In this document: positions 3,218 through 64,000 of the stretch, in pieces | How positions within the stretch are numbered: position 1 is the stretch's first letter | Layout: every line of letters starts with the position of its first letter | DNA from: a virus | Taxonomy: Duplodnaviria > Heunggongvirae > Uroviricota > Caudoviricetes | Direction: 5' to 3' (one strand) | IMG/VR virus record: IMGVR_UViG_3300045988_166199 | Span: 9,605-73,604 of that record | DNA length: 64,000 bases | The notes under the pieces: model-generated | Database searches by the model: none | The model's input: the letters and a program-made list of their open reading frames with translations, nothing else | Told to the model about the DNA's origin: nothing | Translations under genes and position numbers: made by a program

Positions 3218-3298
3218 AAAATAAGCGTGGAGAACACCTCCACGCTTGATTCATTGGTGAAACAACTTTTCTTTTGCCAAACCACAAAAGAAAAACAC

Positions 3299-4480
3299 AT
3301 GAGCCTTTATGTTATATCAACATTTAGGTTGGTCACAATATTGCCTGTTAAAAGTGGAATTATCGTGAGCGAGCTGAAAGAGCTAATTACCGAATTAGAT
3401 TTTGAACAATGGTTGGATACTGAAGGTATCGTTTATCGACGTGGAGGCGTGAGTACTCGCGGTCGTGAAGTGAATATCAAGGAGTGTCCGGTATGCGGCA
3501 GCTCCAACTGGAAGGTATATTTCAATCTGACCAGTGGCGTCGGTAAATGCTTCGCTGGTGATCATCCCGAAGAGATTCAGTTCAATAAGCTGGTCTTCCT
3601 CAAGCACTACAGCGGTAAATCACGACGACAGTTCGAGGAATATGTGCAGAACGCTCTTCTTTCCCAGGGGTGGGCACCAAAGAAAGAAGAGATAGTGCTT
3701 GCAAGCACAGTCGAGTTAGAGGGACCAGTTGCACTCCCTCGTCATTACGATCTTCCTATAGATGGCCATCTTCCAGACTATCTGGTTGAACGAAATATAT
3801 CGCCTGAAATGGCAAAGTATTTTGACCTACGATACTGCGTCGAAGGCAAGCACGCTTATGTAGATCCGTATACAGATCAGGTTAAAGGACAGATTTTCGA
3901 TATGCGAATACTGATACCGGTTTACGATCTGGATGGGGTAATGAAGACATTTCAAGGACGAGACATTACCGGTACAGCAGAACGCCGCTACCTCTTTCCT
4001 ATGCAGCTTCCAGCTTCAGGTAAGTTTCTCTACAACGGCCACAATGCAGTCGGCAAACAGACTGTAGTTGTCTGTGAGGGGGCGTTCGATGTTATGGGGG
4101 TCAAACGAGCTATTTTTGACGAAGAAACATTACGCGATTACGTGGAACCAATAGGAACGTTCGGGATGCATCTATCTGGTAACACCACTCAGGATGCAGA
4201 AGATCAGTTGGGCGCGTTCCTGACGCTCAAGGCGCGTGGATTACGTAATGTGATCATGATGTGGGATAGTGAAAAGCAAGCTATACGAAACACTATGGCC
4301 GCAGCCAGGCGACTGACCAGTATCGGTCTTAATGTGAAAATTGCATGTTTGGGCGAGGAAGGACTCGACCCCGGCGATGCGACCCCGGGGCAGATTATCA
4401 AAGCCTACTATTGCGCAAAACCTTACTCACGACAGCTTGAACTTTTAAGCAAGGTAAAAGGCATAGCAGCATTAGTTTGA
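3299..4480 (+). CDS. DnaG-like DNA primase (zinc ribbon + TOPRIM)
   Basis: Zn-ribbon CPVCGSS..GKCF; TOPRIM-like VVCEGAFDVMG; start placed at in-frame ATG 3299 preceded by AAAGAAAAACACATG (ORF track starts at 3227). Confidence 0.75.
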   Translation: MSLYVISTFRLVTILPVKSGIIVSELKELITELDFEQWLDTEGIVYRRGGVSTRGREVNIKECPVCGSSNWKVYFNLTSGVGKCFAGDHPEEIQFNKLVFLKHYSGKSRRQFEEYVQNALLSQGWAPKKEEIVLASTVELEGPVALPRHYDLPIDGHLPDYLVERNISPEMAKYFDLRYCVEGKHAYVDPYTDQVKGQIFDMRILIPVYDLDGVMKTFQGRDITGTAERRYLFPMQLPASGKFLYNGHNAVGKQTVVVCEGAFDVMGVKRAIFDEETLRDYVEPIGTFGMHLSGNTTQDAEDQLGAFLTLKARGLRNVIMMWDSEKQAIRNTMAAARRLTSIGLNVKIACLGEEGLDPGDATPGQIIKAYYCAKPYSRQLELLSKVKGIAALV

Positions 4481-5617
4481 ACCAGTATTAGTCACGTACA
4501 CATTGACCGAAAATGATTTAACTTCTGTGTTGAAGTTGTCAGTCATTACCGCGAGGTAGGCATTCTTGGTATCTCTGAATTGCTTCAGGATGATTTGAAC
4601 GTTGTCGGTGCAAACAAACGAGGTAGCCAGATTGCCTCCTTTCTCTGAAAAATCCTTCAGGAAGGTGCAGTCAACTTTGCCATCATTAGCGGTGAAGGTA
4701 GCATCATCACCCTGCCAGGTAAATGTAGCGTTAACGCCCTTATCAATGGATTTAGCAATAAGTCGCTGGGTGGCGGATTTTGTTTTGGCTTTGGAAGCCG
4801 GCGCTCGATATTTGCCGCTTTCTTTCAGTTCTGCAATGTAATCGCAGCCTCTTTTTTCTCCTTTATCGCAAGCAGTCTGATAAAGGTCGGCTGCTTTTTT
4901 ATAGTCCTTTTTTACACCTTCCCCATTCTCATACATAATGCCAAGATTGGTTATGGCGTCGGCGTTTCCAAGTTCCGCTGCCTTTTTATACCACTTAACT
5001 GCTTCTGCATCATTGCGTTTAACGCCTAACCCATCATCGTATAGTATTCCTAATCCTATCATAGCTTCTGAACTGCCTTGGTCTGCCGCCTTTTTGTAAT
5101 AAGTAAAAGCCTTTTTATAATTCTTTTTAACGCCTTTACCATATTGGTAATACGCCCCAAGAACTGAAGTTGCTTTAACATACCCGGCATCAGAGGCTAG
5201 TTTGAAGTATTTAATGGCGAGTGCATGATCTACTTTACCAAGCATCCCCTTTTGATAAATAGCACCAAGATTGTTGTAGGCTCTACCTTCACGAGCATCC
5301 CCCGCAAGTTTGTAGTACTCAACAGCTTTATTTAGGTCTTTATCTACACCCTCGCCAAATGTGTACATAACTCCAAGTGCATAATATGCTACTTTATCTC
5401 CCTTTTCTGCAGCTAGATCAATCCACTTCTTGGCCTCAACTACATCCTTATCAAAACCATTGACACCATCAAAATAATTTGTACCTAACTCACTTTGTGC
5501 TGCGGTATCCCCTGCGGTAGCGGCTTCTATCAGCGTTTGTTTATTGTCTGCGTTAACGAATCCAGAGTTAAAAAGCAAAGTTAATGCCAGCAACGATGAA
5601 GATTTTATGTATTTCAT
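4472..5617 (-). CDS. secreted Sel1-like repeat (SLR) protein
   Basis: N-terminal signal peptide; about 7 tandem Sel1/TPR-like repeats (A.YYLG.MY..G.GV.KD...A..WY.KAA); opposite strand to flanking replication genes. Confidence 0.75.
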   Translation of the reverse strand: MKYIKSSSLLALTLLFNSGFVNADNKQTLIEAATAGDTAAQSELGTNYFDGVNGFDKDVVEAKKWIDLAAEKGDKVAYYALGVMYTFGEGVDKDLNKAVEYYKLAGDAREGRAYNNLGAIYQKGMLGKVDHALAIKYFKLASDAGYVKATSVLGAYYQYGKGVKKNYKKAFTYYKKAADQGSSEAMIGLGILYDDGLGVKRNDAEAVKWYKKAAELGNADAITNLGIMYENGEGVKKDYKKAADLYQTACDKGEKRGCDYIAELKESGKYRAPASKAKTKSATQRLIAKSIDKGVNATFTWQGDDATFTANDGKVDCTFLKDFSEKGGNLATSFVCTDNVQIILKQFRDTKNAYLAVMTDNFNTEVKSFSVNVYVTNTGSN

Positions 5618-10454: not shown

Positions 10455-10529
10455 GATGGTGTAGCTCAGCGGTAGAGCAGTTGGCTGTTAACCAACTGGT
10501 CGGTGGTTCGAATCCACCCACCATCGCCA
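10455..10529 (+). tRNA. tRNA-Asn (anticodon GTT)
   Basis: Cloverleaf: acceptor gatggtg/caccatc, anticodon loop ctGTTaa, T-loop ggttcgaatcc, 3' CCA; sequence differs from host asn tRNAs. Confidence 0.8.
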
Positions 10530-10534
10530 ATTTA

Positions 10535-10621
10535 GGGGAGTTAGTCCGTAGAGGTAGCGGGACAGACTGTAAATCTACTGTCATTGCGACTCGGGTGGTT
10601 CGACTCCATCACTCCCCACCA
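10535..10621 (+). tRNA. tRNA-Tyr (anticodon GTA)
   Basis: Acceptor ggggagt/actcccc, anticodon loop ctGTAaa, long variable arm, ggttcgactcc T-loop, CCA. Confidence 0.8.
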
Positions 10622-10625
10622 AATT

Positions 10626-10701
10626 GCCGGTTTAGCTCAGTTGGTAGAGCGCCTGCCTTGTAAGCAGGATGTCAGCGGTTCGAGTCCGTTAACCGGCACC
10701 A
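10626..10701 (+). tRNA. tRNA-Thr (anticodon TGT)
   Basis: Acceptor gccggtt/aaccggc, D-arm tagctcagttggtagagc, anticodon loop ctTGTaa, T-loop ggttcgagtcc, CCA. Confidence 0.75.
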
Positions 10702-10925
10702 ATACAACGATAAGATCATTACGGTTAATCGTCGTTCATGTGCACAATGACTGGTCGAAAGGTAGTGATCTTACCGTTGTGGTGGATTCGCAGACTGATG
10801 CGATAGCTTTCTTGGATGTTAGGGAAATGCGGCCGCAAATCTTCCCTTTCGCGAGCGGTGATCGTCCGTAGTCCTAATTGGCTGCACCGTATGCCGGAGA
10901 TTCAGTACCGGCCACCACAACGGCC

Positions 10926-11012
10926 GGAGAGTAGGGAGCATGGTGCTCAAGCGGTCTTGAAAATCGTCCCATTGTGCAAACGATGATGGTTCGATTCCAT
11001 TACTCTCCGCCA
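10926..11012 (+). tRNA. tRNA-like gene with long variable arm (possibly tRNA-Ser, anticodon TGA; atypical D-arm)
   Basis: Acceptor ggagagt/actctcc, T-loop ggttcgattcc, CCA end; anticodon stem weak and D-loop short, so isotype uncertain. Confidence 0.5.
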
Positions 11013-15175: not shown

Positions 15176-16279
15176 ATGAAAAATAGCTTTGACAGAGCAC
15201 GCGCTGCGGAGAACACCTCAAAAGAGGCGATTGAGTATCTCGAAAGAGCATCTCAAATGCAGGCCGTTATGATCTCCCAGGTCAGCAATGACATGAGATT
15301 CTCGGACGCATTCATGTTATTCACTCGCTTATCTCTGCTGATAACAAGACGTCGGCCAGAGATCGCTGTTCATTGTATTTTGATACATGTTTTGCCGCAC
15401 ATTGCCGATGTAAAAGTAAGTGATATTAATAGGTTCATGGTGAACCAACTGGTCAACCCACTAATACTGGATGGCAAAATTGTTATGGGTCGCCGCGTTT
15501 TCTCTCTGATGAAGCAGTTCCTCAGCTGGTGCGCCTTCCAGGGGATGATCGACGTGTCACCGTTAAACGATATGTCACTTAACAAAGTTGCCGGTGGCGC
15601 AAAGCCCACACCTCGCGAGCGGAAGCTGACCGACGCAGAGGTATGGGTGTTCTGGAATATATGGGACTACTTCAATGTGTGTGCTGGTACAAAATGGGCG
15701 GCCAGGCTATGTCTTGTATCCGCAAGACGACCTGACGAAGTACTGCGGGCTAAAAAAAGTGAGTTCAATCTTAAGCGTGGGGTTTGGAATCAAGGCAAGA
15801 GGAACAAATCTGCCCGTGAGCATTCTCTGCCTTTAAGCTCATTAATGCGCACATGTATTGAAGAGTTGTTCGAATATGGTAAAGACAGCCAGTGGCTCGT
15901 GCCTTCGAATAAAAAAATCGGGAAAGACCTTCCTATGTCTAAAGTGGCAATAGCCCAGGCATTACGTCGTATTCTGGAACGACCAGAACTGATGGAGCTT
16001 GAGCCATTTACACCCCGAGATTTGCGCCGTACTGCGCGTAGTTACTTCCCAGCATTAGGCATAAGCCAGGAGGTATCACGTAAAATCATGAACCACAGTC
16101 TTGAGGGGATAGATCGGGTCTACGACCGGCACGATTATATGGACGAGATGCGAGACGCCTTAGAAAGTTTCTCGACGTACATCGCATCAATCGTAGAGCA
16201 ACCGGATTTAGACGAAATTGACCACAAATTTAAGGGAGATCGTCTATCAACAGAGCTTATTCGTGTAAATTTTTCATAG
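15176..16279 (+). CDS. tyrosine-type site-specific integrase
   Basis: C-terminal catalytic motifs: R in LVSARRPDE, RDLRRTARS box II, NHS...RVYDRHDY with tyrosine nucleophile; lacks a recognisable P4-type N-terminal arm-binding domain. Confidence 0.8.
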   Translation: MKNSFDRARAAENTSKEAIEYLERASQMQAVMISQVSNDMRFSDAFMLFTRLSLLITRRRPEIAVHCILIHVLPHIADVKVSDINRFMVNQLVNPLILDGKIVMGRRVFSLMKQFLSWCAFQGMIDVSPLNDMSLNKVAGGAKPTPRERKLTDAEVWVFWNIWDYFNVCAGTKWAARLCLVSARRPDEVLRAKKSEFNLKRGVWNQGKRNKSAREHSLPLSSLMRTCIEELFEYGKDSQWLVPSNKKIGKDLPMSKVAIAQALRRILERPELMELEPFTPRDLRRTARSYFPALGISQEVSRKIMNHSLEGIDRVYDRHDYMDEMRDALESFSTYIASIVEQPDLDEIDHKFKGDRLSTELIRVNFS

Positions 16280-31533: not shown

Positions 31534-31865
31534 AGGCCATCCCATTCGCGCTGTTGTTCCTTTCTTCGATCGTTGTGGCCGACACCACTGTTTATCAGTG
31601 TGAAATGTCTGTAGCCGACGTTAAGAATGGCGCTCTTACCGACGTCATAAAAGCACCATATGGAGCGATGGTCGTAGACAGCGGCGACCAGTTCTATGTT
31701 GTGCGTGACGATCGAGTGTTGTCATCCCCATATCTCACAAATCGTAATGGCAAATTAACCGGCGTCGGAGAAGACCACTTCGTATACAACAAATACAAGG
31801 GCTTCTATGGCGTTCACGCTTCTCAGCAAAGCTACCTTTTCGATGACTGCAAGGAGGTTGGATAA
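31530..31865 (+). CDS. secreted hypothetical protein (111 aa)
   Basis: N-terminal signal peptide MKAIPFALLFLSSIVVA. Confidence 0.5.
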   Translation: MKAIPFALLFLSSIVVADTTVYQCEMSVADVKNGALTDVIKAPYGAMVVDSGDQFYVVRDDRVLSSPYLTNRNGKLTGVGEDHFVYNKYKGFYGVHASQQSYLFDDCKEVG

Positions 31866-32120
31866 TGGCATTAACACTGGCAGGTCTGGAAATCGAGAAA
31901 ACAAGCGGCTACTGGCGTGCTAAGGGTTCAAGCAGCCTGGCATTCTTGAGCGTCTGGAACGTGAAGATGGGTATATCGTCCACCAGCGGCGTGAATGGCG
32001 TATGTACGATCCAGAAACAGGAAAACTGACTACAAAAGCCGGAACACTTTGGGGTCTGTTGAAGAAAATACACTAAATGCAAACTGACTGCGGCACGTTC
32101 CGCAGTCATATTTCATAGTC

Positions 32121-32657
32121 GTCACCGCTGACAGCATACACAATCAACTGCCGCTGATAGCATATCGAGAGTCTATCTCACCGCTCACAGCATACTTTAC
32201 TCGATTTTTTACCGCTGACAGCATACTTAAGACATTGCATGAATAATGTGTACCGGTATGGGTATAACCAGAACAAAATTACCGCTGGCAGCATACGAAG
32301 GTCTGACATATGCCATTAATTACCGCTGATAGCATATCCAAACAAAAATTCCTCAATAAAACACCGCTGACAGCATACGTTCTATCAGGGGGCAGCAGGC
32401 AATAAATACCTTTCACTACAAGTAATCAACGCAATGGGAATAGAATGTTAGTGAGCGCAAACCTATATGGAATGCACTCTTCGAGGTTAGTAACCACTGG
32501 GGAGGTTTAAAAGAGCATTGAGTGGTGATAGATGATTTACCGCTCACAGCATACGTTTATCTCACTATACCGCTGGTAGCATATCTTTAACCGTTCACAG
32601 CATACTTTTCAGAAAAATAGCCGCTGATAGCATACATTTCACCGCTGACAGCATATC
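32121..32657. repeat. iteron array downstream of rep (about 12 copies of ACCGCTGACAGCATAC-like 16-19 bp repeat in two clusters; incA-like)
   Basis: Copies start near 32124, 32151, 32180, 32211, 32281, 32322, 32363, 32539, 32569, 32590, 32620, 32641. Confidence 0.85.
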
Positions 32658-33750
32658 AAAGTAGTTTGAGACTATTGGAAAGGATCTCAATCATCTTGAT
32701 ATTTTCAGGCGTCAAATTCTGCGAAAGTTCGGTTATCTTATTGATAATGTTCTGTTTGGCATCAATTTCCCCGGCTTTCTCATCTAGTTTTTTGGGTTCG
32801 ATGTCTTCAGGTTTTGGCGGTGCGACTTTGAGTTTTGGATTGCGGCTGTGAATCTGGATATAGATCGACCGCCCTCGCTTAATCTCGCTGTATTCGAGAT
32901 AACCCAAATCTTGGAGAGCTTTTAAGCCGTTGCGTATAGTCTGATTCTGCGAGCTGACATTCCTGCTACTCAAATTGAGTCGCGCACGCAATCGAGCAAG
33001 CGATACCGGCGCAGGCTTGGTTGGAAGACTTTCGATGAAGGTGTACAGAGCCTGTGCTGTTTCTTTGCGTGGTAGCTTATTGATAACCTTTAACTGCAAA
33101 AGAACCTTATGGTCAAAGCGATATAGTTCGGCCAGCTTCGGTTCTGCATAGAACACCACCGTATCTTTCTGCTCGTTGTAGTCCACGCTATTGATGAGGT
33201 GCACCATCAGAAGCGAGATCTTGTTAGAGCCGTCGACGTTCTTTTCTTCATACGTTCTCTGGAAAGACAGAGTTGTACGCATGATCTTCAAAAGACTGTT
33301 TGTAAGCCGGTCGCGGAGTGTTTTGCGGATCTGTGACGATGGATAGCCACAAAACTTCGCAAATTTCGTGATGCTTAACTCGACACGACCGTTAGGTTCG
33401 CCGTATTCTGCCAGCGAACGCACAACGCCCACCCACGTTTTGAAATCATGATCCATGTCCAGGCGAGGACCGGTTATCTTGATATCGGAATAGCCTTCAG
33501 AACGGGCTACTTCGAGCTGGACAAGCTCCTTTGAAGCATCGATCTCATTTGGCTTGTTACGTTTACTGTATTTTGTTCCCTTAAGCGTGGGGACGAACAA
33601 CCCCAGTCGCATCAACGCAATTGGTTGGACTGTATTGTTGCTATTAGGGACAAGTTCCCCTGTGTACAATTCAAGGGAACCTTCTTCAAAGTTGTCGAGA
33701 TTATCTTCTACTTCTTTGTTATTTTTACCTTTTTTATTTTTTGTGGACAT
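32656..33750 (-). CDS. plasmid-type replication initiator (RepA-like, iteron-binding)
   Basis: Gene flanked on both sides by iterons; start placed at internal Met MSTKNKKGK (RBS aaggtg); basic N-terminus; ORF track extends to 33870 across the upstream iterons. Confidence 0.75.
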   Translation of the reverse strand: MSTKNKKGKNNKEVEDNLDNFEEGSLELYTGELVPNSNNTVQPIALMRLGLFVPTLKGTKYSKRNKPNEIDASKELVQLEVARSEGYSDIKITGPRLDMDHDFKTWVGVVRSLAEYGEPNGRVELSITKFAKFCGYPSSQIRKTLRDRLTNSLLKIMRTTLSFQRTYEEKNVDGSNKISLLMVHLINSVDYNEQKDTVVFYAEPKLAELYRFDHKVLLQLKVINKLPRKETAQALYTFIESLPTKPAPVSLARLRARLNLSSRNVSSQNQTIRNGLKALQDLGYLEYSEIKRGRSIYIQIHSRNPKLKVAPPKPEDIEPKKLDEKAGEIDAKQNIINKITELSQNLTPENIKMIEILSNSLKLL

Positions 33751-33770
33751 GTGGACACCTTTGTCATTCA

Positions 33771-33872
33771 ACCGCTGACAGCATACTTGATTTGCCGCTG
33801 GCAGCATACCAAAAACAGTTGGTAGCATACGGCGAACCGTTGACAGACTATCAATTACCGCTGGCAGCATAC
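33771..33872. repeat. origin-proximal iterons (3 good and 2 degenerate copies)
   Basis: accgctgacagcatac (33771), gccgctggcagcatac (33794), accgctggcagcatac (33857), plus degenerate copies. Confidence 0.8.
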
Positions 33873-33911
33873 ATGAACATGGCTTCAGACCAGTCGTGGC
33901 GCGGCTTACAG

Positions 33912-33984
33912 CGATCGGGGATCTTATTTGATCTATACAAGGATCTATCTATGGATCTCTTTATTAGGATCTATCCTGTGGATA
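33912..33984. promoter_or_regulatory. origin-like region: six GATC sites (GGATCT heptamer repeats) plus DnaA-box-like tgtggatat
   Basis: GATC at 33912, 33919, 33929, 33941, 33953, 33967; atatccaca (reverse strand) one mismatch from TTATCCACA; arrangement resembles P1 oriR. Confidence 0.6.
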
Positions 33985-34071
33985 TGTGAATAATTAAAAC
34001 AGGCATTTACTACCTTCGGCGCACCTGGTGGGTTATCGTTGCCTCGGCTAACAATCACAGAAAAATGACAT

Positions 34072-34716
34072 ATGGATCTAAAACGCACGCGCTGGGTTCG
34101 TCGTCTTGAAGACGGCTCCTACACTATTGAATCAAATTCCAACCTGAATAAGCAGAAGTTGCTTTGTGACATCTGCGGTATAGCGGCGAAGTGCCCGATC
34201 TACGAAACCAGAATTAAACTTGATAAGGCTGGTGTGAATTTTCATTTAAACAGTTGCATCAGGTACGTTCCATTGCTCGCATTTCGTAAACCGATCATCG
34301 GATTGGATGCTCCCTACTTCAACACACTCCGTTCAGGTGTGACGTGGCGAGATCGTTTATCACCAGACAAGCTGATTTGCCTCGTATCCGCAGACACAGG
34401 GAAAATCATCCGTTTTGGGAAAGTAGACAAGGTTTACTCAGGCCCAGTAGACGAAATGTTGCGGAAACACAGCCGGTTTAATCATCTCTGTATGGGTGGT
34501 GAGAAAATCGAGAAGGTAGAAGAAGTGATCCGCAAATCCTACGGACACTTTCTGACCAAAGATAGCCTGCTCACCGCAATCTACATCAGACATGTAAAAC
34601 GTGAGTTCGACCTCGAATACCACAGTGAAGAAGAGCTTAACCTTGTTGACCCACGTCCAAAAGCTGGCGTCATAAGCATAAATGCAGCGCGTAAAAAGCC
34701 CACTGACGCGCTGTAA
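34072..34716 (+). CDS. hypothetical protein (214 aa)
   Basis: ORF next to origin; Cys-containing N-terminus; no motif recognised. Confidence 0.5.
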   Translation: MDLKRTRWVRRLEDGSYTIESNSNLNKQKLLCDICGIAAKCPIYETRIKLDKAGVNFHLNSCIRYVPLLAFRKPIIGLDAPYFNTLRSGVTWRDRLSPDKLICLVSADTGKIIRFGKVDKVYSGPVDEMLRKHSRFNHLCMGGEKIEKVEEVIRKSYGHFLTKDSLLTAIYIRHVKREFDLEYHSEEELNLVDPRPKAGVISINAARKKPTDAL

Positions 34717-45375: not shown

Positions 45376-45789
45376 ATGGCAAGAGGTATGTATGTCTTAT
45401 GCGAAATTGAAGGTGTGCTGGCAAATGCCAGCCATCGTAAATCAGTATCTGACGCGGATGCAGGCCAGCTCATTGCCGGTGATGAACTCATTTTCCCCAC
45501 CAGCCGTATGTTGCGTGGTTTTGCTCGCTCAGGGGCTGAAGTGGTGCTTATCAGTAGCCGCTCTGAAACTCTTGAAGCGCCAACTAAACGATGGCTGAAA
45601 GATTTTGGCGTTGATTATGACTGGCTTCATCTCGTACCAAATGGCACCAGTTATGAGAAGCATATTAAGCGCACATTAGCGGAGCATAAAGGCGATCTGC
45701 TTATCGCTGCGCTGGTGCACGATCCTCGACTCCGTGCCGCTTTAGCCGACTCTCACCATCGACCGGTCATCTATGAGGTGAGCAAATGA
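45376..45789 (+). CDS. hypothetical protein (137 aa), translationally coupled to thyA and DHFR genes
   Basis: ATG 2 bp after thyA stop; stop overlaps DHFR start. Confidence 0.45.
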   Translation: MARGMYVLCEIEGVLANASHRKSVSDADAGQLIAGDELIFPTSRMLRGFARSGAEVVLISSRSETLEAPTKRWLKDFGVDYDWLHLVPNGTSYEKHIKRTLAEHKGDLLIAALVHDPRLRAALADSHHRPVIYEVSK

Positions 45790-46262
45790 AGATGATCGCT
45801 GCTGTTGGCCGTAACTATGAGATCGGCATAGCGAATGAACTCCCCTGGCGTTGTTCTACCGATCTGAAGCTATTTAAGAGACTCACCAAAAACGCCACTG
45901 TCGTTATGGGGCGTAAAACGATGGAAAGTCTCAAACGCCCTCTTCCAGAGCGTCATAACCTCGTTTTGACGCGCTCTCATGGCTTTGTACCAAATGGATT
46001 CTACCCTGCTGGTGTGGATGATGTGTTGCGATTACCAGAGCCTGTGTGGGTGATTGGCGGGGAACAAATTTACTCGCTATTCATGCCGCATGTTGAAGAG
46101 ATTTGGCTCTCCCACATCGGCGTTGATGTACCAAACGCCGATGCATTCTTCCCGGCAAGCATGATGCGTAACTTAGGCTTTGTGCCTGTTGAAACAGCTT
46201 ATACCCAACGAGCCAGCGAGGAAGAGCCTGGCTTTTCGCAGATCGTATACAGAAGGTCGTAA
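45786..46262 (+). CDS. dihydrofolate reductase
   Basis: MIAAVGRNYEIGIANELPW...VVMGRKTMESL matches the DHFR N-terminal fingerprint; 158 aa. Confidence 0.9.
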   Translation: MKMIAAVGRNYEIGIANELPWRCSTDLKLFKRLTKNATVVMGRKTMESLKRPLPERHNLVLTRSHGFVPNGFYPAGVDDVLRLPEPVWVIGGEQIYSLFMPHVEEIWLSHIGVDVPNADAFFPASMMRNLGFVPVETAYTQRASEEEPGFSQIVYRRS

Positions 46263-49105: not shown

Positions 49106-49699
49106 ATGATTGCAGCCGAAAAAATCAAACAGCGAAAGCGCGACAACTCTCTTCGTGACCTCTGGAGAACACCTGACTGGCTGTTTTCTGCCATTCAACG
49201 TTATCTTGGAGTGACATTTGATGTTGACGTTGCCTGCAACAAGGACAATGCAAAGCTGCCTAATTTCATAGGCGTTGAGCGTGATGCTTTGAAATCTGAA
49301 TGGGGACAGCCAGGTACAATTGCCTTCCTCAATCCACCCTACTCCAAAATCTCCCCCTGGATTGATGCGGCTATACGTGAGCAGGCTCGCGGAGTTACAA
49401 CAGTGATGCTAATTCCTCAATCCCTAGATACAAAGTGGTATGAGCGTGCAACAGAGTGTGCGAATGAGACGATTATTCTGTCTGGTGGCCGCGTAGCGTT
49501 TGTCGAGCCTGACGTCAATCTGGGTCAGGTAGAAGTAAACATCAACCCAGGTGGCAGTATGCTCGTTGTTTTTCGAGGATTCTGTCAGGACGCTGGGCAC
49601 TCTATAAGCAAGATCCCTTTGGACGTCATGAAAAGTCTGGGAGGGTATGATCCTGCGAATGTGATCAGGAAAAAAAGACCATCAAAGAAGGCTGCTTAG
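49106..49699 (+). CDS. phage-type DNA N6-adenine methyltransferase (Dam-like)
   Basis: WRTPDWLF motif and catalytic FLNPPYSK (NPPY). Confidence 0.85.
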   Translation: MIAAEKIKQRKRDNSLRDLWRTPDWLFSAIQRYLGVTFDVDVACNKDNAKLPNFIGVERDALKSEWGQPGTIAFLNPPYSKISPWIDAAIREQARGVTTVMLIPQSLDTKWYERATECANETIILSGGRVAFVEPDVNLGQVEVNINPGGSMLVVFRGFCQDAGHSISKIPLDVMKSLGGYDPANVIRKKRPSKKAA

Positions 49700-54190: not shown

Positions 54191-57100
54191 CTATATCTGC
54201 CCACCTACTCCTTTGAACTTTTCAATAAACGTGACGATTTTCTGGAAAACGGTCTGTTTTTTCGTTTTATATTGCGGGTTTAACGGACTAAGTTTTGGTA
54301 ATGTCTCGTTTAATTCTGTGCCATTTTCGGTGGCGTATTCGCGTTTTAAAGACGTGCGAATATAGCGTTTTGCTGCATCTTCATTGAGATTTTCTTCTTT
54401 TATCAATGCTTCTGCTTCACGTTGCTGTTCGCGTTTAGCAAACGTAAAGAATGCCTCAATGATACTGGCTTTGTCTGGTAAATCATCCAGGTTCGTTTGC
54501 TGAATAAAATCGACCACCAGGCCCTCTTTCGCCCGGTTCCCCAGGCTTGAACGAATTAAGCGTTTGACCTCTTCGATCATTTCGCCCTTGCCTTTATTTT
54601 GTCTGTTGTGTTCGAAAATCAGTCCAAGGATATAATCCAGGTTTATTTCCTGAGACTTCAGCAAATCGACCTCAAAAACCACGTCATCCCAGTCGGTGGT
54701 TGATTTTTCTTTTTTGTCAGCTTCTTTCTCACGGCGCTGCCAGTCGCGAATATCGTTATAGGCAGAACGATAATCCTGGAGCTTGCGTTCAGCAGGGAGA
54801 CGAATCGTTTGCAATTCAGCGAACTTTTCATCATCCACATAATGTTCTGCTTTGAATTTTTCTACTGCAACAGGATCGCTAAGATCGATTTGTTGCAGGG
54901 CTTTCAGCGTGGCAAATTCATCATAGTTTTGCAGGATGTTCTCGGTACGCAGGTATTCACCAAACAGTTTAACGAAGTCTTTCTTCTCTTTTTCACTTTC
55001 AATACTGGCAGGGTCAGGGAACCGTTGTTCCAGTTCTGCAACTACTGCCATAAAGCCGCGCTTAGCTTCACCAGTAGCAGCATCAGTAAAGCCTTCCATA
55101 TACTCTGCATAACTCTTTTCTAACACTACATTTTTGGTGTTTTTGTCACCAAACAGCGTTATGGCATCGATGGTTGAGCGTTCCAGATCGCGGAAAGTGA
55201 CGATATTACCGAAGGTTTTAGTAGCGTCATAAATGCGGTTGGTGCGGGAAAATGCCTGCATCAGGCCGTGAAAACGCAAGTTTTTATCGACGAATAGCGT
55301 GTTCAATGTTGGAGCGTCGAAGCCGGTTAAAAACATCCCCACGACAATTAATAGATCGATATCCTGATTTTTAACCCGTTGGGCTAAATCACGATAGTAG
55401 TTCTGAAAACCCTTGCTATCAGTGCTGAAATTCATTTGAAAATGGTCGTTATACTCACGAATTGCAGCGTCCAGAAACTCTTTAGCACTGCTGTCCATTG
55501 CACTGGTATCAAAAGATTCATCGGATATTTCACCAATGGCATTTTGTTCTTCATTAGCGGCAAAGGAGAAGATTGTCGCAACACGCAGTGGTTTATAGGT
55601 AGCAGATTTATTAGCTGCTTCCTCTTGTAACCGTTTAAACGTCGCGTAATAGGCTTTCGCGGCATCCACGCTGCTCACTGCCAACATAGCATTAAAACCT
55701 TTTGAGCCAGGGAAGGTACGGTGGGTTTTCTGGCGGAAATTATTCAGAATATATTGCGTGATTTCCTGAATACGCATGGGATGAAGAAACGCCTGCTGAT
55801 TTTCAGCCGCACTCAGTTTTTTCTCGTCAGTTTCTGTCTCTAAAGACTTAAACTGTGGCCGCACATCGTTGTAGTCCACCTTGAATTTGAGCACTTTTTC
55901 GTCACGAATCGCATCGGTAATTACATACGAATGCAATTCACGACCAAATACGCTGGCGGTTGTTTCTGAGCCTAAGGCGTTTTCCGGGAAAATAGGGGTG
56001 CCGGTAAAACCAAACTGATAATAGCGTTTGAATTTCTTCTTCAGGTTTTTCTGCGCTTCTCCAAACTGGCTGCGGTGGCATTCATCAAATATAAACACCA
56101 CTTGCTGATTATATACAGGCAGGTCGCTTTCTGCTTTCATCAGGTTATTGAGTTTCTGAATAGTAGTGACGATAATTTTGTTATCGTCCTTATCCAGATT
56201 TCGTTTAAGGCCTGCGGTATTTTCCGAGCCGTTGACGCTGTCTGGCGAAAAACGCTGATATTCCTTCATGGTCTGGTAATCGAGGTCTTTCCTGTCGACC
56301 ACGAAGAAGACTTTATCAATAAAGTCCAGCTCTGTTGCCAGACGCGCGGCTTTAAAGCTGGTCAGGGTTTTACCGGAACCCGTGGTGTGCCAGATATACC
56401 CACCGCTTTCCGGTTTTGACCAGTTCTTCGCTGTAAAGGAGCTCTTAATTTTCCACAGAATGCGCTCGGTGGCAGCAATCTGGTACGGTCGCATTACCAG
56501 TAGCGTCTGACTGCTGTCAAAAACGCTGTAGTTCACCAGAACATTAAGCAGAGTATGTTTCTGGAAAAAGGTAGCGGTAAAGTCTTTGAGGTCTTTAATC
56601 AGTGTATTGTCTGATTTAGCCCAGTTCATGGTGAAGTCAAAACTGTTTTTATCGCGCTTTGTGGTGTTGGCAAAATAACGGGTATCAGTGCCGTTGGAAA
56701 TGACGAACAGCTGCAGATACTTAAACAGGGAATTTTCGCTGTTAAAACTCTCTTTACTGTAACGATGTATCTGGTTGAAAGCCTCACGAATCGCCACCCC
56801 GCGTTTTTTTAGTTCGATTTGCACCAGCGGTAAACCATTAACCAGGATCGTGACGTCATAACGGTTAGCATGAGAACCCGTCTGTTCAAACTGCTGGATA
56901 ATCTGCACCTTATTGCGCATGAGATTCTTTTTATCTATCAAATAGATGTTCTCAAGACGCTCGTCATCAAAAATAAAGTCGCAAATATAGTCGATATGGA
57001 TTTTACGGGTCTTATCCAGAATGCCATCACTCGGGTTGTCCAGATACTGCTCCGTGAAACGCCGCCACTCGCTGTCATTAAACACCACACCATTGAGGTT

Positions 57101-57307
57101 CTGAAGCTGTTCCCGAACGTTGGCCAGCATCGCTGACTGTGATTTTACGGATATAAATTCATAGCCCTGATTTCGCAGGTCCTGAATCAGTTCCCGTTCC
57201 AGGTCCGATTCGCTCTGATAGCTGTCGCCTGTTTGCTCAGCTTTGATGTACTTATCAAGAACGATAAAGTTATTGGATTCAGCAATGGTGTGTGTCTGAT
57301 GAGTCAT
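54191..57307 (-). CDS. hsdR: type I restriction enzyme R subunit (HsdR)
   Basis: Helicase motifs with GSGKT-type Walker A and DECHRSQ box; 1038 aa; last gene of hsdM-hsdS-hsdR operon. Confidence 0.9.
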
Positions 57308-57428
57308 AGCGCATCCTTTGTGCCGTCTGGCAAGGGCCGGAAGGGAGTTAAGGGTGAGTTCCGGCGCGTAAAAAATAGTCTATATACTGACCGGATGTTA
57401 AGGAGGCCCGGTTGGTAGCAATGGTCAA

Positions 57429-58562
57429 TTATTTACTGACAGTTTCAGGTTTTGGGAAACTGAACAGTAAATCACGATAGTACTCGTATTGTTTCTGGCG
57501 TAACTCGATTTCACGCGGAAGACCTTCGGTGATGGAGTTGGTAAGGGTGTCGAATTTATCGAGTATAGAAACAATACGGTCTTGTTCGGTGATAGGAGGT
57601 ATAGGTATATCATAGGTTTCAAACTCTTTCACTCGGACATGAGGCACACCCGCACCTTTTTTCATTGCATGGATGTGCTCTTGTTTATTTTGTAGCACGT
57701 GGTATATAAACTTTGGTTTTACAATTTTTAAGTCGGAATGAACACTAAAGGCATCGGTTAAAAATATTGGCTGATCCCAGAAGCTGACATATCCTGCATA
57801 GGCACCAGATCTGGCTATAACGATTGTTTCACCTTGTCTGTTGCTCTCGCTATGAAAATAAGTAGGAATTGGTCCATTGGCAACTACTGGTATTTCTCCT
57901 GGTGTTGTCTGTTTTTGGGTAATTGCCGTTCCTCGCTTAAACTGAGCCACTTCCCCCAAAGTCTTCCACTCAACCTCACCCTCTTTAAAACTCAACAACT
58001 GGTCACGATAGTAGTTGTACTGTTTTTTACGCATGTTAAGCTCAGCGGTAAGCTCAGCGGTAAGTGCAGTAAATTTATCCAGAATTCGAACGATTTCAGA
58101 CTGGATGGCAAGGGATTTTTCCGGGTTTTCTGGGCAGGGGATGGGGATAAGTAGTTTATTAACTACGATAGCATCAAGTGTTGGAATGCCCGCAACTCTC
58201 ACCTTTGATTTCAGCAAACTTTGATAACCAATCAGTGCGAAATATAAAAACCTATTATTTAATAGCTCATTGTGCTCTAAGCAAAAGCATCCATCAGAGG
58301 ACCAGAAGTCAACGGTGCTATAGCCAACAGTACCTGCTGAAGCGCCAACATTGATAATCATAACGGTATTAGCCGGACGATTCGACTTATTGTAATATCC
58401 TAACGGTTCTAAGCCGCCATGAAATACCGGGAATTTTTCTTCTGCTGAAAGCAGATTTTTAGTTAGCCTTTTTCCCCGCAAGACACTCGTGACATCTCCA
58501 AGGGCTTTCCATTCCACCTCTGTCCCATCTAGCAGTTTTTCCAGATAATTTAACTCGCTCAT
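57429..58562 (-). CDS. hsdS: type I restriction-modification specificity subunit (HsdS)
   Basis: Two target-recognition halves separated by conserved helical spacers; start overlaps hsdM stop. Confidence 0.8.
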
Positions 58563-60121
58563 CCCTGCACCTCGTCACCTTCAATCTCTGCCACAATTGA
58601 GTCGATATCTTTACGCAACTGGTCGATTTTGCTGACCGTAGTTTTCAGTTCTGCATTCAGCTCAGCAATATTGATTATTTCGCGGTTATCTTTCGCTTCC
58701 ACATAGCTGCTCACTGACAGGTTATAGTCATTCGCTACAATGGTTTCAAACGCGACAGATTTTGCCAGATGAGCAACATCTTCCTTGCTGGCAAATACCT
58801 GCATAATCTGGTTGATATGGGCATCGGTCAGGATATTGTTGTTAGTCTCTTTTTTGAACAGTTCGCTGGCGTCAATAAACTGAACGTTGGTATCCGTTTT
58901 ATGTTTAGACAGCACCAGAATATTGACGGCAATGGTGGTGCCAAAGAACAGGTTCGGTGCCAGTGAAATCACGGTTTCGACATAGTTATTGTCAACCAGA
59001 TACTGACGGATTTTCTGCTCCGCGCCGCCACGGTAAAAAATGCCCGGGAAGCAGACAATCGCAGCACGACCTTTGGCAGAAAGATAGTTCAGCGCATGTA
59101 ATACAAACGCAAAGTCAGCTTTGGATTTGGGGGCCAGAACGCCAGCCGGGGCAAAACGTTCATCGTTAATCAGCGTCGGGTCATCGCTGCCAATCCATTT
59201 CACCGAATACGGCGGGTTAGAAACGATGGCATCAAACGGTTTTTCATCTCTGAAGTGCGGCTCAGTCAGCGTATTGCCCAGCTTGATATCAAACTTGTCG
59301 TAGTTGATGTTGTGCAAAAACATGTTCATACGCGCCAGGTTATAGGTCGTATGGTTGATCTCCTGACCAAAAAAACCTTCTTCGATGATATGGTCATCAA
59401 ACTGTTTTTTAGCCTGCAACAACAGCGAACCGGAGCCTGCTGCCGGGTCGTAGATTTTGTTAACGTGGGTCTGCCCGTGCATAGCCAGTTGTGCAATCAG
59501 CTTAGAGACGTGCTGCGGTGTAAAGAACTCGCCGCCTGACTTACCGGCATTTGCCGCATAGTTAGAGATCAGGAACTCATAGGCATCACCGAACAGGTCA
59601 ATCTGATGTTCGTTGAAGTCACCAAGTTTTAACCCTTCAACCCCTTTCAGAACCGCAGCCAGGCGGGCATTTTTATCTTTAACGGTGTTACCCAGGCGGT
59701 TACTGGTGGTATCGAAATCAGCAAACAAACCTTTGATGTCAGCTTCTGAAGGATAACCGTAAGCAGAACTTTCGATAGCAACGAAGATGCTGTTTAAATC
59801 TGCATTCAGTCTGTCATTAGTATTTGCTTTCGCAGCTACGTTGCAGAAAAGCTGACTGGGGTAGATGAAGTAGCCTTTGGTTTTGATGGCATCGTCTTTA
59901 ATGTCATCAGTAATTACGCTGTCATCCAGTTTCGCATAACAGATACTGTCATCCCCAGCTTCAATATAGCTGGAAAAATTTTCGCTGATAAAACGGTAGA
60001 AAAGTGCGCCCAGAACGTATTGCTTAAAATCCCATCCATCGACCGAACCCCTGACATCGTTAGCAATTTGCCAGATTTGACGATGAAGCTCTGCACGTTG
60101 TTGAATACTTGTCATTTTCAT
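58559..60121 (-). CDS. hsdM: type I restriction-modification DNA methyltransferase subunit (HsdM)
   Basis: N6-adenine MTase motif IVSNPPYS and SAM-binding DPAAGSG; 520 aa. Confidence 0.9.
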
Positions 60122-62011: not shown

Positions 62012-62036
62012 GGCGGTGCAATGCACCGCCTTTTAT
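62012..62036. terminator. bidirectional hairpin terminator
   Basis: aggcggtgc aa tgcaccgcct tttat between convergent UmuD'-like gene and mrp. Confidence 0.7.
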
Positions 62037-63136
62037 CACACTGCGCGGAATGCGATCTCGCCAGGTATTACTTCGCCTTGCCAATACATTTGGGCAGCAA
62101 CGCGATCTGCGAGGTCACGATAAATAGCCGTAAATTCGCTATCTGGACGACTAATAACGGTTGGTGTTCCGTTATCCAGATCTTCACGAAGAGAGATATG
62201 AAGTGGCATTTGGCCTAACAACTGCGTGTTGTATTTCTCGGCCAGTTTCTGTGCGCCACCGGTGCCAAAAATTGGCTCGTGATGACCGCAGTTACTGCAA
62301 ATATGCACACTCATGTTTTCGACGATACCCAGTACCGGCACTTCGACTTTTTCGAACATCACAATGCCTTTCTTCGCATCGATCAGCGCGATGTCTTGCG
62401 GCGTAGTTACCACAACCGCACCAGTTACAGGAATGTTCTGCGCCAGCGTCAACTGAATATCACCAGTGCCCGGCGGCATATCGAGAACGAGATAGTCCAG
62501 ATCAGGCCATAGAGTTTCCTGCAACATCTGCATCAGCGCCTTGCTGGCCATCGGCCCACGCCACACCATTGCATTGTCGTCGGTGACCAGATAACCAATA
62601 GAGTTGGTTGCCAGGCCATGAGACATGATAGGTGCCATGTGAGTACCGTCCGGTGAGGTTGGACGTTGGTTTTCCGCGCCCAGCATGGTTGGAATTGATG
62701 GACCATAGATATCGGCATCCAAAATACCAACTTTCGCACCTTCAGCAGCCAACGCCAGTGCCAGGTTTACCGCCGTGGAGGATTTACCCACGCCGCCCTT
62801 GCCTGAGCTGACGGCGATAATGTTCTTAACGCCATTAATGCCTGGTTGGTTTTTGACGCGCTTAAGCGTGGCAATGTTGTACGACAGCTTCCAGTCAATA
62901 GCCTTTGCGCCAGTGATACGGAGCAGATCACCACTACATTGCTCTTTCAGGTCTTCAAAAGGCTTATTCCACACGAAAGGCATGATTAGTTCGACATGCA
63001 GTGTGTCATCCATCAACGCAACATGGTGTAACGCTTTAAGCGTAGTCAGGTTGTGTTTCAGGGTTGGGTGCTGAAAATTAGCCAGCGTACCGGCTACCAT
63101 TGCTCTCAGGGCATCCGGCGATTTGGACTCGCTCAT
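62036..63136 (-). CDS. apbC: Fe-S cluster carrier ATPase Mrp/ApbC
   Basis: Walker A SGKGGVGKSS, CxxC motif, near-identity to enterobacterial Mrp as recalled. Confidence 0.95.
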   Translation of the reverse strand: MSESKSPDALRAMVAGTLANFQHPTLKHNLTTLKALHHVALMDDTLHVELIMPFVWNKPFEDLKEQCSGDLLRITGAKAIDWKLSYNIATLKRVKNQPGINGVKNIIAVSSGKGGVGKSSTAVNLALALAAEGAKVGILDADIYGPSIPTMLGAENQRPTSPDGTHMAPIMSHGLATNSIGYLVTDDNAMVWRGPMASKALMQMLQETLWPDLDYLVLDMPPGTGDIQLTLAQNIPVTGAVVVTTPQDIALIDAKKGIVMFEKVEVPVLGIVENMSVHICSNCGHHEPIFGTGGAQKLAEKYNTQLLGQMPLHISLREDLDNGTPTVISRPDSEFTAIYRDLADRVAAQMYWQGEVIPGEIAFRAV

Positions 63137-63293: not shown

Positions 63294-64000
63294 ATGACCC
63301 AAGTCGCGAAGAAAATTCTGGTGACGTGCGCGCTGCCGTACGCTAACGGCTCAATCCACCTCGGCCATATGCTGGAGCACATCCAGGCTGATGTCTGGGT
63401 TCGTTACCAGCGAATGCGCGGCCACGAGGTTAATTTCATCTGTGCCGACGATGCCCACGGTACGCCGATCATGCTGAAAGCACAGCAGCTTGGTATCACA
63501 CCGGAGCAGATGATTGGCGAAATGAGTCAGGAACACCAGACTGATTTCGCAGGCTTTAACATCAGCTATGACAACTATCACTCGACGCACAGCGAAGAGA
63601 ACCGTCAGTTGTCTGAGCTTATCTATACTCGCCTGAAAGAGAACGGTTTTATTAAAAACCGCACTATCTCTCAGTTGTACGACCCGGAAAAAGGCATGTT
63701 CCTGCCGGATCGTTTTGTAAAAGGCACCTGCCCGAAATGTAAAGCGCCAGATCAATACGGCGATAACTGTGAAGTCTGCGGCGCAACATATAGCCCGACT
63801 GAATTGATCGAGCCGAAATCGGTGGTTTCTGGCGCTACCCCGGTAATGCGTGATTCCGAACACTTCTTCTTTGATCTACCTTCTTTCAGCGAAATGTTGC
63901 TGGCATGGACCCGCAGCGGTGCGTTGCAGGAGCAGGTGGCAAATAAAATGCAGGAGTGGTTTGAATCCGGCCTGCAACAGTGGGATATCTCCCGCGACGC
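63294..64000 (+). CDS. metG: methionine--tRNA ligase (N-terminal part; continues beyond window)
   Basis: [43 protein letters not shown]... HIGH-type motif and zinc knuckle CPKC..C..CG; E. coli-like. Confidence 0.95.

Follow-up and report, generated by a model that had tools for sequence, protein, structure and literature searches.

Organization of the Locus

The window analyzed here, a 64,000-nucleotide stretch of a Caudoviricetes virus record (IMG/VR IMGVR_UViG_3300045988_166199), carries a plasmid-type initiator gene, repA, at 32656-33750 on the minus strand (364 aa; ATG 33750-33748, stop codon 32658-32656), flanked by 17 iterons with the consensus RTATGCTGYCAGCGGTRA, five upstream and 12 downstream of the gene and all on one strand. 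A search with the pattern CCGCTGRYAGCATA, allowing at most two mismatches, returns 17 matches in the window vs. 1.0 expected, a count reached by none of the shuffles; 16 of these, matched on the plus strand, are iterons within 32120-33872, and the remaining one, on the minus strand, falls inside repA (33404-33417). The fifth origin iteron, a degenerate copy at 33832-33851, is seen only when three mismatches are allowed.

The features of the replicon are listed here on the minus strand, that of repA. The five upstream, or origin, iterons (33767-33872) are the equivalent of P1 incC, with start-to-start spacing of 21, 21, 21 and 23 bp; copies 2 and 3 are degenerate. The 12 downstream, or control, iterons are incA-like, in direct orientation throughout, and form a proximal cluster of five (32535-32656; spacing 21, 30, 21 and 30 bp), whose first member directly adjoins the repA stop codon, and a distal cluster of seven (32120-32378; spacing 41, 41, 70, 31, 30 and 26 bp). 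The preliminary description of this DNA, which had put the number at 3-5 upstream and about 12 downstream in two clusters, thus agrees with the present count. The layout is conserved among relatives: the full 651-bp control array is retained in 120 of 126 matching plasmid records, and among the 80 IMG/VR relatives sampled, those with RepA at least 78% identical have the same iteron consensus and 8-12 downstream iterons, nearly all direct. Klebsiella pJN2-26 repeats both the phasing of the five origin iterons and the GATC spacing of the window, while Escherichia phage PhiR41_1 lacks the last three distal iterons through an 87-bp iteron-to-iteron deletion. Relics of SSU5-type iterons are not enriched in the window: the nine matches, against 6.7 expected, all lie outside the replicon.

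Beyond the origin iterons, a spacer (33873-33912) with a GC-rich core, GCCGCGCCACGACTGG, common to P1 oriR, leads to six GATC (Dam) sites within 59 bp (33913-33971), the number and span given in the preliminary description. The sites start at 33913, 33920, 33930, 33942, 33954 and 33968, spaced 14, 12, 12, 10 and 7 bp when read on the repA strand, and five of the six lie within AGATCC/AGATCA heptamer-like units, mostly of the form (T)AGATCC. The 64-kb window holds 261 GATC sites and no other cluster of more than three; a six-site cluster was reached in one of 2000 random placements of the same number of sites, and the six sites are retained in almost all related loci. This segment would be the region where the origin opens, under Dam/SeqA control. 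The outer edge of the origin is marked by two tandem DnaA boxes (33977-33993), assigned by motif match and by position in P1 oriR: box 1, TTATTCACA (33993-33985), fits TTWTNCACA exactly, and box 2, ATATCCACA (33985-33977), which overlaps it by one base, has one mismatch to TTATCCACA. A DnaA-box-like site had been noted here before; the site stands, as a pair rather than a single box.

Between the two control clusters, a gap of 176 bp holds a conserved non-iteron element of ~60 bp (32442-32507), CCCCAGTGGTTACTAACCT-N19-AGGTTTGCGCTCACTAACA, with two ACTAAC units (AGTGGTYACTAAC-like) 39-40 bp apart. Replicons from E. coli, Salmonella, Cronobacter and Klebsiella all retain this element, within or beside the control iterons, SSU5 and Cyrano have it in the opposite orientation, and P1 lacks it; its presence extends over RepA alleles with different iterons. 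A search of the whole plasmid for further copies of its motif, expected of an operator or centromere family, found none. A structured RNA in the 156-nt gap was considered, given a fold z of -3.8 on the repA strand vs. 0.1 on the opposite strand, and was dropped in favor of a DNA site because an alignment of 12 lineage variants displays block conservation with almost no covariation; an Rfam search of 31800-34200 at E ≤ 1 returned nothing. Likenesses to a Tus Ter core, a XerCD site and an IHF site, judged by eye, were too weak to keep. Our tentative proposal is that the element may be an undescribed cis-acting control site of SSU5-supergroup replicons, working with modular exchange of the iteron and repA cassette (32077-33883); among its possible roles are those of a further initiator-site class, a binding site for a host factor, a replication-fork barrier or a centromere. 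At the far end of the array, a GC-rich hairpin with a 9-bp stem (32085-32108), terminator-like on both strands, closes the replicon against convergent upstream genes and lies at the 32076/32077 boundary of the same cassette.

The Initiator Gene and Its Product

The repA ATG is preceded by AAGGTG, 5 nt upstream, and the 364-aa product agrees with the PhiR41_1 annotation; PGAP places the start at 33870, giving a 404-aa protein that reads through the iterons. The frame is intact and its product is 99-100% identical across dozens of loci. As the preliminary description proposed, the gene encodes a RepA-like protein: it is homologous to P1/P7 RepA (tblastn, 43.5% identity over aa 32-309, E = 2e-64), and aa 118-239 match Pfam Rep3_N with 37.5 bits, above the gathering cut-off of 22.4 (E = 3.9e-9). 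Identity is 48% to RepA of SSU5/Cyrano and 85-87% to RepA of Klebsiella phage-plasmids, and all 120 homologues listed contain PF01051 (Rep_3). An NCBIfam search gave no match.

RepA models as a two-winged-helix (WH1-WH2) iteron-binding initiator. An AF2 run on 54 aligned sequences gave a model of moderate confidence (pLDDT 72.5); a single-sequence model (pLDDT 38) was discarded. In Foldseek the former matches RctB domains 2-3, RepE-iteron and RepE-operator complexes and a Rep-DUE complex, as well as the MSBI1.176 WH1 domain, π, the pPS10 RepA WH1 domain and TrfA. The link to RepE, π and RctB comes from this fold search only, as PDB sequence searches with one protein and two profiles found no initiator. 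The homology to iteron-binding initiators on which the earlier reading depended is there, in the 43.5% identity to P1/P7 RepA. The N-terminal residues 1-41 are disordered and Lys-rich, and residues 327-363 form a C-terminal helical hairpin, which P1 RepA does not have.

By analogy with P1, the repA promoter should lie within the origin iterons (33767-33872). A scan for consensus σ70 promoters on the repA strand within the iterons found none; the weak candidates are TTGGTA-18-AAGTAT (33812-33783), at a position equivalent to that of P1 PrepA (TTGCTA-18-TAGGAT), and TTGATA-19-TATGCT (33854-33824).

The Carrier Element

The window matches a circular record, NZ_CP104116.1 (E. coli plasmid pEc2-51408, 112.6 kb), end to end, collinearly and almost identically. 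This record encodes a terminase, portal, major capsid protein, tape measure and tail fibre, so the structural genes sought outside the window are present, and its backbone is 95% identical to those of Cyrano and PhiR41_1 and 80% identical to that of SSU5; the suggestion of an SSU5-like phage-plasmid is thus supported by a circular element with virion genes and an SSU5-related backbone. PhiR41_1, whose record was deposited as a phage with E. coli MG1655 as host, carries a replicon with 98.9% identity to that of the window. Virions have been reported for Cyrano (PMC9928086). More than 120 complete assemblies contain the element of the window as a free circular plasmid, and the repA product is the sole plasmid-type initiator annotated on the 112.6-kb record. 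Decayed derivatives of 62-64 kb in E. albertii, for which no virion genes are listed, keep the replicon and a ParA-like gene. A 2026 heteroresistance preprint deals with a different, CopA/IncFII-type phage-plasmid family.

Besides the replicon, the window encodes a DnaB-like helicase, primase, ligase, DnaE-type Pol III α subunit, nrdAB, thyA and DHFR. Replication and nucleotide-metabolism genes are hence present as first described, although the term T4-like applied to them is loose; the polymerase is not of the T4 type. A tyrosine recombinase gene lies at 15176-16279 of the window.

The window contains no parAB, as the preliminary description had it, and the control array is followed by the hairpin and convergent small genes, not by parA-parB-parS. 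Outside the window, the search for partition genes was answered in part: a ParA-like gene exists, yet no parAB adjoins the replicon. The sole ParA/MinD-type ATPase is encoded at 72651-73319 of NZ_CP104116.1, ~1.5 kb before the window start and ~34 kb from the iterons, and no centromere-like repeat array was found around it. This ATPase is accompanied by a small ParB-like partner of 117 aa, the pair spanning 72651-73678 of the record.

A Probable Maintenance Replicon Under Iteron Control

The arrangement is real and the element is already catalogued; what the locus does is read from its parts. We consider it about 90% probable that the locus maintains an SSU5-supergroup phage-plasmid in its plasmid-prophage state, as a theta replicon of the P1/RepFIB family under iteron control. 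Literature text searches found no description of the iterons or origin of this allele; the general mechanism of iteron plasmids, with DnaK/J monomerization, titration, handcuffing and Dam/SeqA, has been reviewed (PMC6090056). By homology with P1 we infer the biochemical steps that follow, where the promoter lies, and that Dam, DnaA and chaperones are needed. RepA monomers would occupy the five origin iterons, which are helically phased (33767-33872), and host DnaA both tandem boxes (33977-33993), and the two proteins would jointly open the GATC-heptamer region between them (33913-33971). This region would require Dam methylation and, hemimethylated after firing, would be sequestered, precluding immediate re-initiation. 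RepA bound to the origin iterons would also repress its own promoter. The 12 downstream iterons (32120-32656) would keep the copy number low through titration of RepA and handcuffing with the origin iterons, and are the probable main incompatibility determinant.

Could the region instead serve the phage chiefly as its lytic (vegetative) origin? A DnaB-like helicase, a primase and a DnaE polymerase are encoded by the element itself, and no separate RepL/oriL-type lytic replicon is seen in the annotation, both of which would suit such a role. We nevertheless regard it as improbable, since the combination of RepA, iterons and an incA-like array typifies low-copy control and has its homology in the R, not the lytic, replicon of P1, a negative-control array of 12 iterons makes little sense for runaway replication, and virion-less derivatives still carry the replicon; the region may, however, have a dual role. 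Even less credit is due to the idea that the repeats serve the phage for attachment or recombination (attL/attR) or act as a partition centromere: the record of Klebsiella phage pJN2-26 labels two equivalent 20-bp repeats attL and attR, and the ParA-like gene has no centromere-like array of its own beside it, but the repeats number 17, not two, are helically phased and lie on both sides of an initiator gene in just the P1 manner. The element is moreover a free circular plasmid in the complete assemblies, the ParA-like gene is tens of kilobases away, and the pJN2-26 labels look like a prophage-finder artifact.

That the replicon is an inactive relic and another system maintains the element is the least probable reading, one we hardly credit. 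The consensus scan that detected no promoter is all that can be set on its side, and positive support is lacking, whereas the repA frame is intact with a nearly invariant product, iteron number and phasing are conserved, and the record has no other annotated plasmid initiator.

The phage-plasmid lineage to which the element belongs is common in E. coli, Shigella and Salmonella, and its copy number, incompatibility and host range are set by this replicon; the cargo of the lineage includes dfrA51 and a type I restriction-modification system, with ESBL genes in relatives. General knowledge of iteron replicons is unchanged by these findings. A precise map of the origin, iterons and swap boundaries is useful for vectors and for curing or incompatibility tools, corrects annotation errors (a RepA start inside the iterons; iterons labeled attL/attR), and helps to explain the possible coexistence of two SSU5-like elements within a cell.

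Comparison With Known Replicons

Part for part, the replicon follows the annotated P1 oriR-repA-incA region, in line with the P1-like organization first proposed: DnaA boxes, GATC heptamers, GC-rich spacer, five iterons, repA, and an array beginning at the stop codon. In both replicons the origin core (tandem DnaA boxes, at least five GATC heptamers and the GC-rich spacer) is distal to the iterons, and positions 33890-34004 of the window are 77% identical to P1 oriR over 118 bp (E = 7e-16). P1 oriR has an annotated DnaA site at the position of the window's boxes, and both boxes align; five Dam sites are annotated at the place equivalent to the six of the window. P1 incC contains five iterons at 21-22 bp spacing, the window five of ~19 bp at 21-23 bp, and copy 9 of P1 incA adjoins the repA stop codon just as the first control iteron does here. 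With homologous initiators added to this shared plan, the replicon is P1-type in architecture and ancestry. It is not so in specificity: the iteron is RTATGCTGYCAGCGGTRA in the window vs. GATGTGTGCTGGAGGGAAA in P1, and the P1 (IncY) iteron, ATGTGTGCTGGAGGGAA, differs from the window consensus, which implies an incompatibility specificity different from that of P1 (IncY). The control array has 12 iterons in two clusters, all direct, vs. nine in P1, six of them inverted, so that the geometry of pairing may differ. RepA is longer (364 vs. 286 aa, with extra N- and C-terminal segments), and, unlike P1, the window replicon has no parAB-parS after the control array and includes the extra conserved non-iteron element.

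The best Foldseek match of the RepA model is to domains 2-3 of RctB, the initiator of Vibrio cholerae chromosome 2 (E = 7.6e-8); with 658 aa, four domains and no sequence homology to RepA, RctB offers an analogy only. The RctB/ori2 system likewise uses iterons, Dam/SeqA and a separate control region (PMC6090056).

The database homologues at 50-59% identity to RepA, among them proteins named RepFIB replication protein A in their sources, have in common with it the C-terminal extension missing from P1 RepA. RepFIB replicons of F-type plasmids reside on conjugative or virulence plasmids, not on phage genomes.

The SSU5/pLF82 allele, as seen in phage Cyrano, occupies the same genomic slot with the same flanking genes and P1-type plan. 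The DnaA-box/GATC core is 96.8% identical to that of Cyrano up to position 33884 of the window; the iteron and repA cassette (32077-33883) is swapped, and the flanks, origin core included, are 97-98% identical. One recombination boundary, 33883/33884, falls inside the spacer, and the other is 32076/32077. The SSU5/pLF82 allele differs in its RepA, only 48% identical to that of the window, in iterons of the AACCACTGTAGAGAG type, in a second, degenerate origin-core module, in control iterons of both orientations, and in an inverted ~60-bp element.

The closest counterpart is the replicon of pECOH89 and p09EL50, which several typing papers label IncFIB(H89-PhagePlasmid), giving the label and gene name, not the origin or iteron anatomy. 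The RepA proteins of these two plasmids are the same and are 48% identical to pLF82 RepA (PMC3999498). The 2.1-kb region of the window is 98.4% identical to p09EL50 (NC_018651.1) over 2101 bp and the control array 97.4% identical to pECOH89 (NC_023916.1) over 651 bp; theirs is essentially the same replicon as that of the window, with nothing of substance to set them apart.

Carrier Phage-Plasmid

We identify the feature as an iteron replicon of the P1/RepFIB family that acts as plasmid-prophage origin in a known phage-plasmid of the SSU5 supergroup, and we place the probability that it is a functional maintenance replicon, with a mechanism assigned by homology, at about 0.9. The element itself is already known: typing papers label the corresponding replicon IncFIB(H89-PhagePlasmid). 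Only the cassette boundaries and a conserved ~60-bp element, both described below, might repay experiments.

The 2.1-kb replicon region is 100% identical to that of pEc2-51408 (NZ_CP104116.1), a circular E. coli plasmid of 112,587 bp. The region is at least 98% identical in more than 100 other Escherichia/Shigella plasmids of ~100-115 kb, including p09EL50 of O104:H4, and 98.9% identical in Escherichia phage PhiR41_1. Probes of 40 bases, one per 4 kb over the entire window, map the window collinearly onto NZ_CP104116.1, starting at 74,787, passing the end of the record and reaching ~26,200, with a 1-bp offset. The structural genes to be sought outside the window are found on this record (terminase, portal, major capsid, tape measure, tail tip and tail fibre), together with a DNA-metabolism set (DnaB-like helicase, primase, ligase, DnaE, nrdAB, thyA and dfrA51); the replication genes had been called T4-like, an imprecise label for a set with a DnaE-type polymerase. 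Over its first 25 kb, the window shows ~95% identity to the phages PhiR41_1 and Cyrano (pLF82) and ~80% to SSU5. This backbone identity places the carrier within the SSU5 supergroup described for phage-plasmids (PMC7969092), in agreement with the initial proposal.

Cargo genes include a complete type I restriction-modification system (hsdR, hsdS, hsdM; window 54191-60121), a 158-aa DHFR annotated as trimethoprim-resistant DfrA51 (45786-46262) and a four-tRNA gene cluster (Asn, Tyr, Thr, Ser; 10455-11012). Chromosomal-looking apbC and metG (methionyl-tRNA synthetase) lie at 62036-63136 and 63294-64000 and are also present on a decayed 63.8-kb E. albertii derivative (locus L093). A tyrosine recombinase gene occupies 15176-16279. 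A phage-encoded Dam-family N6-adenine methyltransferase gene (49106-49699; PF05869, E 2.5e-38) and the Dam-site cluster of the origin occur on one element; P1 encodes a Dam of its own.

Origin and Iteron Arrays

A RepA-like gene with iterons on both sides had been recognized at the outset, and this arrangement stands, with five iterons upstream and 12 downstream in clusters of five and seven. The iteron pattern CCGCTGRYAGCATA, at up to two mismatches, gives 17 matches against 1.0 expected, a number attained in no shuffle; 16 are plus-strand iterons within 32120-33872, and the remaining one lies on the minus strand within repA. Read on the repA strand, the unit is RTATGCTGYCAGCGGTRA. The origin iterons (33872-33767, upstream of repA) are spaced by 21, 21, 21 and 23 bp, the degenerate fifth emerging when three mismatches are allowed. 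The first of the proximal control iterons (32656-32535) abuts the repA stop codon, the distal ones span 32378-32120, and beyond the control array lie a terminator-like hairpin (32085-32108) and then convergent small genes.

The six clustered GATC sites are confirmed at 33913-33971, and nowhere else in the window do more than three cluster; six were reached by 1 of 2000 random placements. Adjoining them, the DnaA-box-like site noted earlier resolves into two tandem boxes, TTATTCACA and ATATCCACA, the former an exact fit to TTWTNCACA. A scan of the repA strand within the iterons returned no consensus promoter; a weak candidate, TTGGTA-18-AAGTAT, is located where P1 carries TTGCTA-18-TAGGAT; autoregulation of repA by RepA is therefore something that we infer.

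RepA Initiator

The minus-strand repA (33750-32656) encodes 364 aa, with AAGGTG 5 nt before its ATG. In PGAP/RefSeq, RepA is 404 aa long (NZ_CP104116.1, 107443-108657) and starts at an ATG at 33870, inside the origin iterons; its extra N-terminus (window 33751-33870) is translated iterons, MLPAV...MLPTV...MLPAA. The start at 33750 is favored as the probable true one because of P1 RepA homology, the Shine-Dalgarno sequence and the annotation of PhiR41_1, in which RepA also has 364 aa.

The expected homology to iteron-binding initiators is evident: RepA scores 37.5 bits on Pfam Rep3_N, above the threshold of 22.4, and its residues 32-309 are 43.5% identical to P1/P7 RepA (E 2e-64). Identity is 48% to SSU5/Cyrano RepA and 85-87% to Klebsiella phage-plasmid RepA. 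A large protein collection holds 477 relatives; PF01051 is present in all 120 matches listed, many of them named RepB-family or RepFIB RepA. A sequence search of solved structures gave no match for RepA. Its AF2 model (pLDDT 72.5), for which 54 sequences were aligned, matches RctB domains 2-3, RepE on iteron/operator DNA, pi, TrfA and WH1 domains; the predicted fold is that of a two-winged-helix iteron initiator. Disorder is predicted for residues 1-41 and 309-328. At its C-terminus RepA shares a helical hairpin (aa 327-363) with SSU5-type and RepFIB-type proteins; the 286-aa P1 RepA lacks it.

Partition

Neither a ParA nor a ParB gene is found in the window, as first reported. Outside it, at 72651-73678 of NZ_CP104116.1 (22651-23678 of L006, the comparison locus from this record), ~1.5 kb before the window start and ~34 kb from repA, lies a gene for a ParA/MinD-type ATPase of 222 aa and, after it, one for a 117-aa protein; a search around the ParA-like gene gave no centromere-like repeats. 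The ATPase matches Pfam AAA_31, MipZ, CbiA and ParA, its partner has no Pfam match, and the pair is the likely partition system. Two ParB_N-domain proteins adjoin the terminase gene on the same record. Several decayed plasmids (62-64 kb) from E. albertii, for which no virion genes are listed, have retained repA and its iterons along with the ParA-like pair, providing natural evidence that this module maintains a plasmid. E. albertii p2014C-4015-1 (L092/L093, 63.8 kb) has IS insertions and a truncated dnaE, and several wild-bird E. albertii isolates carry plasmids near-identical to it.

A Conserved Element in the Control Array

The two control clusters are separated by a gap of 176 bp, which contains a ~60-bp non-iteron block (window 32442-32507). 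This block is nearly invariant across E. coli variants, with variable immediate flanks; replicons of Salmonella, Cronobacter and Klebsiella have it too, and it is conserved across RepA alleles and genera. In Klebsiella it follows the last iteron, and SSU5 and Cyrano carry it in the opposite orientation; P1, JK004 and lineages with 52-60% RepA identity gave no match, nor was a second copy found on the plasmid. Its consensus, CCC(C/T)AGTGGTYACTAACCT-N19/20-RGGTTWG-N4/5-YYACTAACA, comprises two ACTAAC-containing units ~39-40 bp apart, the first holding the palindrome GGTTACTAACC.

Folded as RNA, the repA strand of the gap is unusually stable (z = -3.8). The cross-lineage alignment displays sequence blocks with essentially no covariation, and Rfam returned nothing. 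For these reasons the block is read as a putative protein-binding DNA site.

Natural Variants

Among 80 IMG/VR loci with RepA relatives, those with RepA identity of at least 78% share the iteron consensus of the present replicon and have six GATC sites, with four to five origin iterons detectable. Their downstream iterons are nearly all direct, with a single reverse match in each of three loci, and differ in number by lineage: the E. coli type has 12, Salmonella and an 88% type have 10-11, and Klebsiella types have 8-9. Of 126 plasmid records, 120 retain all 651 bp of the control array, pECOH89 among them. PhiR41_1 (L002) has an exact 87-bp iteron-to-iteron deletion, equivalent to window ~32120-32206, which removes three distal control iterons and leaves nine instead of 12; its copy number might be altered. 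In Klebsiella phage pJN2-26 (L007), GenBank labels two iterons flanking repA (1333-1352 and 2603-2622) attR and attL, almost certainly a prophage-finder artefact.

Comparison With SSU5-Type and P1 Replicons

The flanks of the replicon are 96.8% (window 36765-33884) and 98.4% (32076-29500) identical to Cyrano, and the 1,807 bp between them (32077-33883, against 2884-4982 of the Cyrano locus L091), containing the origin iterons, repA and control array, do not align to it. The boundaries of the swap are sharp: one falls within the origin, in the spacer separating the GATC cluster from the first iteron, and the other just before the hairpin; SSU5 gives the same pattern. Two phage-plasmids whose backbones are ~95% identical therefore have the DnaA/GATC origin core in common and carry different iteron-RepA specificity cassettes, in agreement with the 48% identity between pLF82 and pECOH89 RepA (PMC3999498). 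In SSU5-type replicons, repA is preceded by a tandem pair of origin modules, both of which comprise a DnaA box, GATC repeats and ~5 iterons (2255-2500 and 2630-2900 in the SSU5 locus L004; 2760-2990 and 3140-3400 in L091). The second origin core of SSU5 and Cyrano is degenerate, and in the repA-proximal module most GATC sites have become GAACC/GACCC.

The proposed P1 R organization holds as far as the control array. On the repA strand, the annotated P1 order is a DnaA site, five Dam sites, five incC iterons at 21-22 bp, PrepA inside the iterons, repA, nine incA iterons from the stop codon, and parA-parB-parS. The two origin cores align base for base in three blocks, TTATCCAC.GGATAGATCC.AATAA, GATCCC.GATCG and GCCGCGCCACG.CTGG (blastn, 77% identity over 118 bp, E 7e-16), and GATC spacing is 7, 10, 12, 12 and 14 bp in the window versus 7, 10, 11 and 23 bp in P1. 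By contrast, the iteron sequences differ; the window replicon has 12 control iterons, P1 nine; iterons are all direct in the former, whereas six are inverted in P1 incA; and only P1 has a partition operon next to the control array. The window replicon is not of the P1 incompatibility type.
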